Below, piece after piece: positions 10,905-39,837 of a stretch of 64,000 nucleotides of DNA. The DNA is from a phage: sequence record PZ583738.1; one strand, given 5' to 3'. The translations under genes and the position numbers were made by a program. The stretch's first letter is position 1. Each line of letters opens with the position of its first letter. The notes beneath the pieces were generated by a model, which searched no databases, was not told the origin of the DNA, and worked only from the letters and a program-made list of their open reading frames with translations.

Positions 10905-11396
10905 TTATTCCCACCAGTCAATTGCGAACGTTGTTTCAAACGTCTCAATCTCATTATTGGAGTCCCAATCCATCTGGACTTCCCCAACGTTGGTTGGCCA
11001 CATGCCGGTAATAACAACTTCTTTCGTAATGGTCTTGCCATCACGATGGAACTGGCGGACAGTAGCGGTTTTCTTATAATCAGCAGGAGCTGCACCAGTG
11101 ATTTCGTTAGTCATACCGTGACACAGGTTTTGCCAATCAACAATTGCTTGACGAACTTTATGAGCATCGTCGTTATAAATCGTAATAGTCCAGTCATCAA
11201 ATGTACGGTCACCCGCCACGTTGATTTTACGGTTCATGTAACCGACCGGAACTTTTTCTACAATGCCTGCTGGCATCGGGGCTGCTTTACAATGGAAAGC
11301 AAAGTTTTTACCCAGGAATGGGATTTCGACTTCGAACAGGTTAGGGCGAGCAAAGTCCCCTGACTCGAAGGCCCTGGTGATATCAGTAAGTTCCAT
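10905..11396 (-). CDS. 19: tail tube protein gp19
   Basis: 163 aa, same size as T4 gp19, position after gene 18. Confidence 0.85.
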   Translation of the reverse strand: MELTDITRAFESGDFARPNLFEVEIPFLGKNFAFHCKAAPMPAGIVEKVPVGYMNRKINVAGDRTFDDWTITIYNDDAHKVRQAIVDWQNLCHGMTNEITGAAPADYKKTATVRQFHRDGKTITKEVVITGMWPTNVGEVQMDWDSNNEIETFETTFAIDWWE

Positions 11397-11399
11397 AAG

Positions 11400-12083
11400 T
11401 TATTGTTTCCTATGATAATTTTCTATAAATTCTTGTAAATCACGTAAAGATATACTATTATTTATATCCTTCGAACGATTCAATTCCCACGGAATCATTT
11501 CAAGATTTTCAATGTGTCCAATGATTTCGGGGTCGATATTATTGTCAAATCCATACTTGATGGAAACCTTGTGGTCTAATTGATATGCACCTTCAATTCC
11601 AGCTCTTCCGGTCTTTTCAAAATTTGGGAGATTTTGCACTTCAGATTTAAAATTTAATGCGGTGAATTGACGAACTGCATATGCATATCGTTTGAATTCT
11701 CTTAATCTTGGATTATATCGTCCGTTTAATTCCCCTCGAGTATTTATATTGGGAATACCCTTTTTGGATTTGGAGATTTTTACGCCTTTAGATTTTCGAA
11801 TTTTTAGTCCATCTGGTGTGTTCCAAAATTCTTTACGCAAATCCGAATAAATTTCCCATCTATGGCTTTTGCAGAATTGGATATTGATGTTATTTATTTT
11901 ATCTCGTGTAACTGTATATTCAGCTCCACATTCATCACATTTACAATCAACTTTGACTCGGCATCCCAAATGTTCAATGTTGATTAAATGTGTTGTTCCT
12001 ACTGAAACATCATAACCTTGCTCACGCAAATTTGTCACATTTCTATTAGTTACATTAACGAGTTGTTTATCACTTACTATCAT
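11400..12083 (-). CDS. freestanding HNH homing endonuclease inserted between genes 18 and 19
   Basis: 227 aa; Cys-rich N-terminus (CKCDECG), HNH-type motif region AYQLDHKVSIKYGF...N; T4 has no gene at this junction. Confidence 0.75.
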   Translation of the reverse strand: MIVSDKQLVNVTNRNVTNLREQGYDVSVGTTHLINIEHLGCRVKVDCKCDECGAEYTVTRDKINNINIQFCKSHRWEIYSDLRKEFWNTPDGLKIRKSKGVKISKSKKGIPNINTRGELNGRYNPRLREFKRYAYAVRQFTALNFKSEVQNLPNFEKTGRAGIEGAYQLDHKVSIKYGFDNNIDPEIIGHIENLEMIPWELNRSKDINNSISLRDLQEFIENYHRKQ

Positions 12084-12198
12084 AGTAGCCTCAAATCGCG
12101 CACCAGAGCGATTCTGGGACGATTTTATCCGTGTTATGTATAAACACCTTACTTAAAGGTTGCGTGCTCTATAATCGTTTATAGGAGCTTTATGCTTT

Positions 12199-12206
12199 TA
12201 TTTATA
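12199..12206 (-). promoter_or_regulatory. late promoter TATAAATA upstream of the HNH endonuclease gene and gene 19
   Basis: Exact motif in the 18/HNH intergenic region. Confidence 0.45.
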
Positions 12207-12291
12207 ACACGGTATAATGGGTCTAATCTATTCCGTTAAGCAATTACACTCAACCATAATAGGTAAGAGGGGACTTTCATCCCCTAATTTA

Positions 12292-14271
12292 TTATTGTGG
12301 CCCAATCAGCTCATCGAAATTAGCACCGGTGCTTGTTGCTACGAAATTAAGCGTGATGTAGTTGATGCTGCGCGCCGGTTTGAAATAAATGCTGGCAACA
12401 AACTCATTTCGGTCTATGACCGACGGGGTGTTGTTGGTAGTATCACAAACCACACGACCTTCATAAATGCCACCGAGCGCACGAATACCATCCAAGTATT
12501 GAGAAGTTTCCATACGGAATGATGCACGAGTGAAGTTATCGTTAAGCTCAAACAGTTTATATTTGGATGCGTCACCGATATTTTTCTTCAGCATATTCGT
12601 AAGACGGCGAACGTTGATATGGTCCATCGGAGATGGAACTTTAGTTGCAGTCTTATCACCATACAGAACAAAACCATCACCACCTGCGAAACCAACAACC
12701 GGGTTGATAGCTTCCTGATACATGCGGTCACGTTGGGTCTGACGTGGTTCAACAGCCAATTTCAGAACGTTCAGAATCTGACCGCGGTTATAACCTGCCG
12801 GAGACATCCAAGGCTGAGAAACATCATCAGTACGAGCACACAGACCAGCCATATCAGCTGCCAGAGGAACCCAACGGTTAACGTCGTTATATTTATCATA
12901 CTGATATTTATAGTTGCCATCAATCGCTGCATAAGTCGTGCTGATATTCATGTTATCAGTATCAAATGCACCAGCACCTGTACGCCAGTCAATCAGGTTA
13001 TCCACTGCACGGGTCAGAGGAACGTTAACCAACAGACCTTTCGGCGGGGAAATGAATGCCAAGCAATCCTGACGTTCGTCAGCAATAGAAACTACGTGCT
13101 TCTGAACAGTGGAAGCGGTCGCATCACCTTCACCAGCACAAGCACCAGCGATAAGTAGGTTGATATGCAGAGCTTCACGGTCAGCGAACAGGTCCCAACC
13201 TTGCATCAAATCACCAGCGGTAATCTTATCGTTTGCAGAAATACCACCAGACAGATTGATGATACCACTGAAGCCTACAGGCCAGTTGCGAGATGTTGCA
13301 TAGATGTAGTTGGAAGTACCTTTTGCAAAGTAGTCATCCAGGTAAATGTTATTACCATAAACATCTTTTTCGCCCTGCTTAGTAGACAAAACAACGTTTT
13401 CGACGATTGCACCATCGCGGCGAACGATAATTGCATATTGGTTTTCGGTCTGAGGACCATAGTTAAACACTGCACGAGCTATAGAAGCGCGGGAACCACC
13501 ACCGGGGAAAATATCCAGATTTGCAGTTGCGCCTTTTTCAAATTCAGCTTTGGATACGATTTCAACTTCAAGAGTCGAACCAATTTCACCAGGATAAAGA
13601 GCAACAACACCCGGCATTACATATTTTGCCAATGATGCCTGGAATTCCAGAGAAGTAATTGCTTCTTCACTGTTTTCTGCTTCAGTCAACAGAATGCCAG
13701 AATCGGTAACAATTTTTCCGACAGTGATGGTACCAGATACACCGGAAGAAGTGGTCGTAACTTCTGCAGTCCATGCACTGCCCAAATTAGGATACTGATT
13801 AATAGTTTTAGCAAATGCAATAATCTTATTGGTAGGAATAAAGATTGCCAGAATTTTACCATCAACATCGACCTTGGTCACACGGCCAGCTGGTTCAACA
13901 ACAGTCTGGTTGTGTTTAACCTGAATAACATCACCGACAGCATAGTTTGTACCAGCAGTTACGATGGTAGTTTCAATATTGCCAGCAATAGGGGATGCGT
14001 TTTTAGCTTCGTCACGGTTAACAACACGTACAGTACGGAGGTCATTACCATATTGCAGGAAGTTCATCCCACTCATAAAGTAATCTGCTGTTTCATTATT
14101 CGGACCACCAAACAAATCAACAAGTTCAACTTCGTTTGTAATCTGAGTTACCTGGAAAGCTGGGCCCCACTGGAATTTACCAACCAGCGCCGCACGACCC
14201 GTCGCGTTACGAACAACAGTGCTTTGGACCGTTGTTTCTTTGAGCTCAATGCCCGGAGATAATAAAGCCAT
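12292..14271 (-). CDS. 18: tail sheath protein gp18
   Basis: 659 aa, size and position of T4 gp18. Confidence 0.9.
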   Translation of the reverse strand: MALLSPGIELKETTVQSTVVRNATGRAALVGKFQWGPAFQVTQITNEVELVDLFGGPNNETADYFMSGMNFLQYGNDLRTVRVVNRDEAKNASPIAGNIETTIVTAGTNYAVGDVIQVKHNQTVVEPAGRVTKVDVDGKILAIFIPTNKIIAFAKTINQYPNLGSAWTAEVTTTSSGVSGTITVGKIVTDSGILLTEAENSEEAITSLEFQASLAKYVMPGVVALYPGEIGSTLEVEIVSKAEFEKGATANLDIFPGGGSRASIARAVFNYGPQTENQYAIIVRRDGAIVENVVLSTKQGEKDVYGNNIYLDDYFAKGTSNYIYATSRNWPVGFSGIINLSGGISANDKITAGDLMQGWDLFADREALHINLLIAGACAGEGDATASTVQKHVVSIADERQDCLAFISPPKGLLVNVPLTRAVDNLIDWRTGAGAFDTDNMNISTTYAAIDGNYKYQYDKYNDVNRWVPLAADMAGLCARTDDVSQPWMSPAGYNRGQILNVLKLAVEPRQTQRDRMYQEAINPVVGFAGGDGFVLYGDKTATKVPSPMDHINVRRLTNMLKKNIGDASKYKLFELNDNFTRASFRMETSQYLDGIRALGGIYEGRVVCDTTNNTPSVIDRNEFVASIYFKPARSINYITLNFVATSTGANFDELIGPQ

Positions 14272-39237: not shown

Positions 39238-39837
39238 ATGTCAGGTTTATATAATCAAACTAACACGACTAACTTTATATTAGAGGTAAGCGATTCAAAC
39301 CTCACACAGACCTTTAAACTCAACGTTCAAGACGTTACCCTCCCTGGAGTTCACATTCCAGTGACGGATGTCCCTGGGGGAACACAAGGTATAAATCGCT
39401 CCAGTCTTCCTGGTAGTACAATAGAATTCGACCCGCTGATTGTTAACTTTCTGTGTGACAAAGACCTAAGAGCATGGCTTGATATCTATAAATGGATGCT
39501 CTCGCTCAACAACTACATCACACACGAATCAAAAGCATGGCATCCAAAGGGTCGTCCCGAAGCGGTCACGCTTCATATCTTAGATAACAACAAGGACAAA
39601 ATTGTCATGTCAATCCATTACTATGGAGCATGGCCGTCCGACCTGTCAGAGATTCAGTATTCATATAAAGAAGATTCTGACCCGGCTATCATTGCAACAG
39701 CAACTTTTAACTTTAAGTCTTTTGCTGTAGAAATTGATGGTATAATAATAGAAGGTAGACCACAGATTGATAGTAATGCAGCAATGCAACAGGAAATCAG
39801 GTCTAAGTCAATGCATCCATCTATGAGAAACGTATGA
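39238..39837 (+). CDS. 3: tail completion / sheath terminator protein gp3
   Basis: 199 aa in gene 3 position between genes 2 and 1. Confidence 0.65.
   Translation: MSGLYNQTNTTNFILEVSDSNLTQTFKLNVQDVTLPGVHIPVTDVPGGTQGINRSSLPGSTIEFDPLIVNFLCDKDLRAWLDIYKWMLSLNNYITHESKAWHPKGRPEAVTLHILDNNKDKIVMSIHYYGAWPSDLSEIQYSYKEDSDPAIIATATFNFKSFAVEIDGIIIEGRPQIDSNAAMQQEIRSKSMHPSMRNV

Follow-up and report, generated by a model that had tools for sequence, protein, structure and literature searches.

A probable free-standing homing endonuclease gene of a divergent HNH-like family between the tail sheath and tail tube genes of a T4-like phage

We analysed a stretch of phage DNA of 64,000 nucleotides (nt) (sequence record PZ583738.1; hereafter the window), in which an open reading frame (ORF) of 227 amino acids (aa) lies between the genes for the tail sheath (gp18) and the tail tube (gp19). 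The original prediction, made from the sequence, had taken this ORF for an HNH homing endonuclease that was inserted at a junction contiguous in T4, would be co-transcribed with gene 19 from a late promoter, and could promote marker exclusion of gene 18/19 alleles in co-infections. Our analysis supported this interpretation as a whole, with refinements: the ORF is most probably a free-standing homing endonuclease gene of a divergent His-Me finger (HNH-like) family specialised in the T4-like sheath/tube junction. In the mechanism that we propose, late transcription from a resident promoter at 12199-12206, together with read-through from gene 18, would place the ORF on one mRNA with gene 19; the protein would contact DNA via its N-terminal zinc-ribbon region; its C-terminal D-H...N...N metal site would nick or cut the insert-free 18-19 alleles of co-infecting relatives; and recombinational repair would copy the cassette, along with some adjoining sequence, into the cut genome. 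In this scheme the catalytic activity of the protein, its site of cleavage, its time of expression and the favoured inheritance of the cassette in mixed infections are inferred.

The 18-19 spacer of the window was 895 nt long and held this single ORF, which begins with ATG and matched PHROG 5104 over its full length, so that the ORF of the original prediction proved to be real. The corresponding spacer of T4 was 116 nt without an ORF, confirming that the junction is contiguous there, and in the insert-free relatives P479 and SP18 it was 200-205 nt. Comparison of close relatives revealed three states of the junction: empty, occupied by the form found in the window (type A), or occupied by the form found in T6 and Escherichia phage DK-13 (type B; both labels were coined in this analysis). 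Over 25 kb, the window was 99.1% identical to DK-13 and 98.1% identical to P479, both Gaprivervirus. Within the same spacer P479 and SP18 were empty, DK-13 held type B, and type A was found in the window and in VR26, the nearest public genome at the locus, which carries the same ORF at the same place with 89% protein identity. The occupation of a spacer between conserved genes and the sporadic presence among close relatives (absent from P479, SP18 and T4; present in VR26), both expected of a homing gene, were thus observed.

The sequences flanking the inserts also bore traces of transfer. In every 100-nt bin of gp18 and of gp19-gp20, the window was 98-100% identical to P479 and DK-13, except in the bins adjoining the inserts. 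The exception in the window was gp19 nt 6-39 (11358-11391), which differed from both P479 and DK-13 at 11 positions, all synonymous, and was of the VR26/SP18 allele; judging from this pattern, the patch looks like a co-conversion tract. In DK-13, whose divergent patch lay in the 3' end of gp18 rather than in gp19, the exception comprised the last ~100 nt of gp18 next to the type B gene, with 19 differences from the window, four of them amino-acid changes; the last 240 nt of gp18 in the window showed two differences from P479.

Furthermore, two public contigs were found to encode an identical 227-aa protein. The longer one, k119_905 of the metagenome assembly ENA ERZ27235397 (L019), was 97.5% identical to the window over 5.8 kb, and within this region a stretch of 1,049 nt matched without a single mismatch (Table 1), while the flanks differed by 2-3%. 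Beyond 12320, the contig showed 17 mismatches in ~100 nt of gp18 (12300-12399), where it carries a DK-13-type allele, and the left recombination junction of the cassette lay at most ~30 nt from the gp18 stop codon. The lack of mismatches over 1 kb between divergent flanks indicated that the same 1-kb unit sits in two backbones. The divergence of the ORF was also decoupled from that of gp19 in both directions: Serratia phage 4S and CHI14 were 87% identical in the ORF and 79% in gp19, and the window and the P0002 contig were 76% identical in the ORF and 95% in gp19. The G+C content of the ORF was 32.9%, compared with 45-46% in the flanks.

The identical cassette on two backbones, the three states of the junction and the divergence between 4S and CHI14 together argued for recent lateral movement and not for vertical descent with loss. 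The cassette is a unit of ~1 kb that has moved between backbones together with the first 40-125 nt of gp19, which is lateral transfer with flanking sequence of the kind expected of a homing gene. These signatures are what homing with co-conversion would leave behind; they fall short of proof that the initiating break is the work of this protein, and the co-conversion-like tracts point to homing or marker exclusion indirectly.

The encoded protein itself was then considered. PHROG 5104, which it matched at E 5e-71, has no assigned function. Twenty close homologues were found, and 5,735 representative clusters (50% identity) matched the family at E ≤ 1e-3. The domain order comprised an N-terminal zinc-ribbon-like region, a helical/basic linker and a C-terminal His-Me/HNH-like nuclease domain. 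The N-terminal region was beta-rich and carried the motif Cys49-x2-Cys52...Cys71-x2-His74 (Cys-x2-Cys...Cys-x2-His/Cys in the family). In a 21-sequence family alignment, D170, H171, N193, N202 and K205 were invariant, so that candidate catalytic residues of the HNH kind were recovered on alignment. Across 52 diverse relatives (25-49% identity), Y133, H171, N193 and N202 were invariant, and D170, L194, W199 and K205 were present in at least 90%. The resulting pattern, LDH-x21-NL-x7-N-x2-K, corresponds to the canonical HNH layout with the final His replaced by Asn.

The structural model was in good agreement with this motif. AlphaFold gave a predicted local distance difference test score (pLDDT) of 87 for the full length, and a pLDDT of 91 with a predicted template modelling score (pTM) of 0.81 for the nuclease domain. 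In the model, H171 ends a strand, N193 begins the next strand and N202 lies on the helix after it; the predicted core thus shows the beta-beta-alpha-metal topology of His-Me finger nucleases, with the invariant general-base His at the end of strand 1 preceded by Asp/His, the structural Asn before strand 2, and the metal-ligand Asn/His on the helix. Domain-only relatives gave weak matches to PHROGs named endonuclease VII or HNH (E 6e-5 to 8e-3), and relatives were found to join the nuclease domain to varied DNA-binding modules, namely helix-turn-helix (HTH), DUF7487 and NUMOD3. Such a modular build of nuclease and DNA-binding parts is typical for homing endonucleases. The ratio of nonsynonymous to synonymous substitution (dN/dS) of the ORF was 0.10-0.34, indicating that the protein is maintained under purifying selection. 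By motif and predicted fold, rather than by any curated profile, we assign the domain as HNH-like with good confidence. A basic segment at residues 90-109 resembled NUMOD3 by eye; in Pfam searches, NUMOD3 gave no match in the window protein and was found in one of the 52 relatives.

Several observations weigh against a homing endonuclease. No curated HNH profile of Pfam or NCBIfam matched the window protein (E ≤ 1) or 60 relatives (E ≤ 10 for the domain-only relatives and E ≤ 0.01 for the 52), and the HNH type claimed in the original prediction was therefore upheld at the level of motif and fold, not of curated profiles. When the family was compared by hhalign with the alignment of the HK97 gp74 family, the sole reference family used, LDH was paired with VDH, but the similarity was not significant (P = 0.069, hhalign probability below 1%). 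The cleavage site cannot be read from the sequence. The insert-free SP18 also has the gp19 5' allele found next to the insert, so that this allele alone does not mark the element. Finally, all of the homologue contexts examined (12/12) lay between the sheath and tube genes, which also fits an old, vertically inherited and often-lost accessory gene. As a further observation on SP18, this phage bears much of the gp18 3' allele seen beside type B genes as well; its alleles may be those of a donor lineage, or SP18 may represent a resistant "empty" site left after loss of the element.

The distribution of the family bears on the strongest of the alternatives, namely that the ORF encodes an accessory nuclease or DNA-binding protein that has been domesticated and has ceased to home, has been inherited mostly vertically at the junction and has been lost repeatedly, and that might act in competitor exclusion, DNA metabolism or regulation of the 18-19 region. 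The 12 contexts were those of VR26, DK-13, Serratia 4S, IME540, Bp7, UGJNEcP3, CHI14, Citrobacter Ursula, T6, Salmonella S16, Acinetobacter Mokit and Aeromonas AS-zj, covering Tevenvirinae, Twarogvirinae (Mokit) and Emmerichvirinae (AS-zj), and homologues therefore occur at the junction across Straboviridae. The constancy of the junction in every context and in three subfamilies speaks for domestication, as do the strong purifying selection and the supply of the gp19 ribosome-binding site by the cassette (see below), which would entangle the ORF functionally with an essential gene. The family was not universal: homologues were found in 244 phage records as against 1,599 records with gp19, which puts the occurrence of the ORF at no more than about 15% of T4-like phage records. 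The identical 1,049-nt cassette in two backbones with a 2-3% flank difference, the occurrence of no insert, type A and type B on backbones of 99-100% identity, and an ORF divergence between 4S and CHI14 below that of gp19 all argue against domestication, which we accordingly regard as unlikely.

Somewhat less probable still is that the protein is not an HNH-type nuclease at all, being instead a zinc-ribbon DNA-binding protein or having another nuclease fold, with the D-H...N...N arrangement coincidental. Sequence searches of Pfam, NCBIfam and the PDB yielded no HNH match and only weak zinc-finger ones at the Cys49-Cys52 region, and a Foldseek search of the PDB with the full-length model returned Cas9-HNH matches only, which were non-significant; on the other side stand the invariant residues and the predicted topology described above. 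The idea of a chance open frame in a variable spacer, not expressed as protein, has nothing in its favour besides the "hypothetical protein" annotations of public records, and was effectively refuted by conservation (dN/dS of 0.10-0.34 and full-length conservation in many genera), alongside the confident structure prediction and the GAGG Shine-Dalgarno sequence 5 nt before the ATG.

In the layout of the junction (Table 1), positions 11400-12206 comprise the ORF, its 5' leader and the promoter, and the minus strand of the window carries gp17, gp18, gp19 and gp20 in the late-gene order of T4. The product of gp18 matched the Pfam Gp18 domains and Phage_sheath (E down to 2e-38), and that of gp19 matched Pfam Phage_T4_gp19 (E 6e-9) and the PHROG tail tube family (E 3e-65). 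The late-promoter motif TATAAATA was present where originally described (12206..12199, minus strand), 115 nt 5' of the ORF ATG; 20 copies of the motif were counted in the window against 5.2 expected, a number that none of the shuffles attained. The stop codon TAA of the ORF (11400-11402) is separated from the gp19 ATG by 3 nt, and the sole match to a terminator-like site lay upstream of the promoter, with none between the ORF and gp19. These features are consistent with the proposed co-transcription of the ORF with gp19, which stands as a prediction.

Table 1. Features of the 18-19 junction in the window, with type B genes of other phages for comparison
Feature	Coordinates	Strand	Remarks
gp19 tail tube gene, downstream neighbour	10905..11396	-	Pfam and PHROG matches
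Zero-mismatch stretch against L019 (1,049 nt)	11272..12320	-	Spacer, ORF and first 125 nt of gp19
Junction AGGAAACAATAACTT, then gp19 ATG	11397..11411	-	AGGA at 11408-11411 within the last codons of the ORF
Free-standing homing-endonuclease-like ORF, 227 aa	11400..12083	-	ATG start
C-terminal nuclease domain	11403..11708	-	About residues 126-227
TATAAATA within the ORF	11459..11466	-	62 nt before gp19 ATG; candidate replacement late promoter for gp19
Candidate catalytic residues	D170-H171, 11571-11576; N193, 11505-11507; N202, 11478-11480		Also K205
Predicted 5' leader of the ORF on the late transcript	12084..12193	-	Shine-Dalgarno GAGG at 12089-12092
Inverted repeat	12129..12212	-	Arms 12197-12212 and 12129-12144, 88% complementary
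Spacer block common to insert-free relatives	12190..12225	-	Holds the late promoter; 34/36 identical to P479
G+C-rich hairpin AGGGGATGAAAGTCCCCT	12268..12285	-	Directly 3' of gp18 stop; specific to the cassette allele
gp18 tail sheath gene, upstream neighbour	12292..14271	-	Pfam and PHROG tail sheath matches
Type B genes	DK-13, L003 1677-2282; T6, L012 1435-2040		Also RZ, VR7 and TH57

The claim of an insertion at the junction required modification: a mobile element is indeed found there, but it has replaced spacer sequence rather than simply entering it. The block 12225..12190 was the only part of the window spacer common to the insert-free phages, and since these also have the promoter at 12199-12206, it is the resident promoter of the spacer. 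Cassette-specific sequence extended from 12189 through to the gp19 ATG and took the place of ~130 nt of native spacer, in which lay both a second TATAAATA, 52 nt before gp19, and the original ribosome-binding site of that gene, GAGGA. On the basis of these comparisons, the cassette is a replacement and not a clean insertion.

The replacement may leave gp19 dependent on signals within the ORF. The sequence GATAGGAAACAATAACTT-ATG was almost invariant across the type A loci (the window, VR26, the P0002 contig, Serratia 4S, IME540 and CHI14), the proteins of which are only about 55% identical. Such near-invariance of the junction despite the divergence of the proteins suggested that the AGGA in the 3' end of the ORF (11408-11411) is likely the Shine-Dalgarno-like ribosome-binding site of gp19. 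The TATAAATA at 11459..11466 within the ORF was kept in the subclade of the window (VR26 and the P0002 contig) and had 14/16 nt in common with the spacer promoter; a second internal copy was located at 11741-11748. Shuffling of synonymous codons with the protein fixed gave P = 0.18 for one TATAAATA in the last 110 nt and P = 0.09 for two copies. Because the motif is thus not rare given the peptide, we treat the internal TATAAATA as a candidate only, and its role as a replacement late promoter for gp19 is suggestive.

With respect to translation of the ORF, the leader of about 106-110 nt with GAGG is characteristic of the subclade formed by the window, VR26 and the P0002 contig. In 4S, IME540, CHI14 and Bp7, TATAAATA instead lay just 5-6 nt before the ATG of the type A ORF and no Shine-Dalgarno sequence was visible; the late transcript of these four phages would begin approximately at the ATG, so that the endonuclease message would have no leader or would not be translated. 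Sequestration of the ribosome-binding site by the leader of the window was considered and rejected, the small hairpins found partly over the Shine-Dalgarno sequence and AUG folding not significantly better than shuffles (z = -1.7). A search of Rfam identified neither an RNA family nor a group I intron.

Other structures were noted around the promoter. The region of the inverted repeat gave a minimum free energy (MFE) of -61.9 kcal/mol (z = -3.9). In RNA reading through from gp18 this repeat would put the promoter sequence in a long hairpin, and transcripts from the late promoter itself would be without its 5' arm; any function can be put forward only as a conjecture. In the insert-free P479 and SP18, a perfect 10-nt inverted repeat (CCGTAGAACC ... 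GGTTCTACGG) flanks the first late promoter, and the window is without the right arm of that repeat because the cassette breakpoint lies exactly between promoter and right arm. The window's own inverted repeat (12197-12212 with 12129-12144) differs from that of P479/SP18 and involves the promoter itself. The AGGGGATGAAAGTCCCCT hairpin was found in VR26 and was absent from P479 and SP18.

Type B proved to be a second form of the same family. BLASTP related the window protein to ORF19.1 of T6 (E 1e-35, 35% identity over the full length) and to the DK-13 protein (E 2e-31, 36% identity over residues 44-216), and both the C-terminal motif and the gp18-gp19 junction were the same as in type A. Type B differs in being 201 aa long, without the ~20-aa helical segment at residues 75-95, and in its position, 39-67 nt after the gp18 stop, where the native spacer promoters and the ribosome-binding site of gp19 remain undisturbed; in DK-13, RZ, VR7 and TH57, the 201-aa ORF lay 67 nt past the gp18 stop and was followed by the complete native spacer. 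Type A, by contrast, abuts gp19 and replaces the promoter and ribosome-binding site that type B keeps.

Free-standing HNH (mob) and GIY-YIG (seg) genes are well known in T4-like phages (PMC2988022). Like the window ORF, the Mob proteins of T4 (MobA-MobE) are encoded by free-standing genes in spacers between conserved genes and pair an HNH-type motif with a part that binds zinc and DNA; nicking of the target and over-inheritance in crosses are documented for MobE and MobA (PMC2988022). The architecture of Mob proteins is, however, an N-terminal HNH_3 nuclease domain followed by a C-terminal zinc finger, and Table 1 of the same paper describes no Mob gene at the 18-19 junction (PMC2988022). Membership in the Mob family was rejected: the window protein gave no HNH_3 match, and its nuclease-like domain is C-terminal and its zinc-ribbon N-terminal. 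With the domain order reversed and the HNH_3 match lacking, the ORF does not encode a Mob protein. In the structure paper on I-HmuI of Bacillus phage SPO1, the active site is reportedly Asp-His...Asn...Asn ("HNN"), which would resemble D170-H171...N193...N202 of the window protein. No sequence similarity to I-HmuI was detected for the window protein, and I-HmuI is an intron-encoded nicking HNH enzyme with an N-terminal nuclease domain, unlike the free-standing window ORF with its C-terminal domain. The GVE2 HNH protein (5h0o), the Geobacter Gme HNH protein (4h9d) and HK97 gp74 showed only 9-15% identity to the window protein, and these are terminase-associated or stand-alone proteins rather than site-specific mobile elements.

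The proposed biology is the same as that of SegF and SegG of T4, which are GIY-YIG enzymes and thus differ in nuclease fold, as well as in loci; for these, breakage of the relative that lacks the insert, repair templated by the genome that carries it, co-conversion of flanking markers and marker exclusion have been described (PMC2988022). A Hef-like identity was also considered on account of a gene of Dickeya phage LIMEstone1 and weak Campylobacter phage matches, and was rejected, the family profile missing both F-LimVIII and F-LimVII. Hef-type enzymes have been assigned to the Vsr-like endonucleases (PMC3239194), and the window protein was found not to have a Vsr-like (EDxHD) catalytic domain. 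F-LimVIII, a Hef-like protein of 596 aa encoded on the opposite strand between the sheath and tube genes of LIMEstone1 (L018 13129-14919), nevertheless occupies the same junction in a distantly related myovirus and belongs to an unrelated family (PMC3296691); homing endonuclease genes of at least two families have thus come to rest at this junction, which is a recurrent landing site.

In public records, the T6 ORF19.1 stands in GenBank as an unnamed ORF, and among relatives some automated annotations read "HNH endonuclease" or "homing endonuclease" and others "hypothetical protein". For T6, Petrov et al. give one gene as "other HNH", without a name (PMC2993671). Our literature search, covering ORF19.1/gp19.1 and homing endonucleases at the T4-like sheath-tube junction, found no description or test of the element.

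A fuller but decidedly tentative reading, which we hold to be possible rather than probable, is that the nuclease domain represents a large unprofiled clade (>5,700 clusters at 50% identity), one lineage of which is tied to this junction across Straboviridae with two subtypes and entry points, and that type A has in addition become entrenched there by swapping the proximal promoter and ribosome-binding site of gp19 for signals in its own coding sequence. If this were true, simple deletion of type A would cripple the expression of the essential tail protein gp19.

Much of the mosaicism and marker exclusion among T4-like phages is driven by free-standing homing endonucleases, and to our knowledge few of these have a mapped target. 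The present element is of an ordinary kind but offers an unusually clean natural example, near-identical backbones being empty (P479), of type A (window) or of type B (DK-13). The comparison with insert-free relatives suggested in the original prediction thus set limits on the homing site: together with the identical cassette in a second backbone, these backbones place it within ~330 nt, made up of the 200-nt spacer and ~125 nt at the start of gp19, and make it directly mappable. Pfam has no model for the nuclease domain despite its thousands of relatives. A profile for this domain would turn many phage "hypothetical proteins" into annotated mobile nucleases, which is relevant to the vetting of phage-therapy genomes and to recombination analyses.

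Several minor observations were made on related loci. In Salmonella phage S16 (L015 1528-2292), the annotated 106-aa "gp100.1" lies within a 255-codon stop-to-stop frame that holds the whole nuclease domain, and the public annotation probably begins too late. The Dhakavirus genomes IME540 (L006 3681-4262) and Bp7 (L008 3703-4284) carry an extra 193-aa hypothetical ORF between gp19 and gp20, and the portal gene gp20 of Bp7 is annotated in two pieces (4342-4665/4671-); this spot may be another mobile-element site next door. Elsewhere in the window, no second copy of the family was found, nor any homing-endonuclease domain in ten other unassigned ORFs. A 216-aa ORF at 51593-52243 (+), without a Pfam match, showed a weak cysteine-rich likeness to the N-terminus of the family profile (E 0.007 within the window), which is probably just the zinc-binding motif. 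A 199-aa ORF at 39238-39837 (+) matched Pfam Phage_T4_gp19 (E 1.7e-7); it is probably not a second tail tube gene but the gp54/gp48-like paralogue that serves as baseplate tube initiator.
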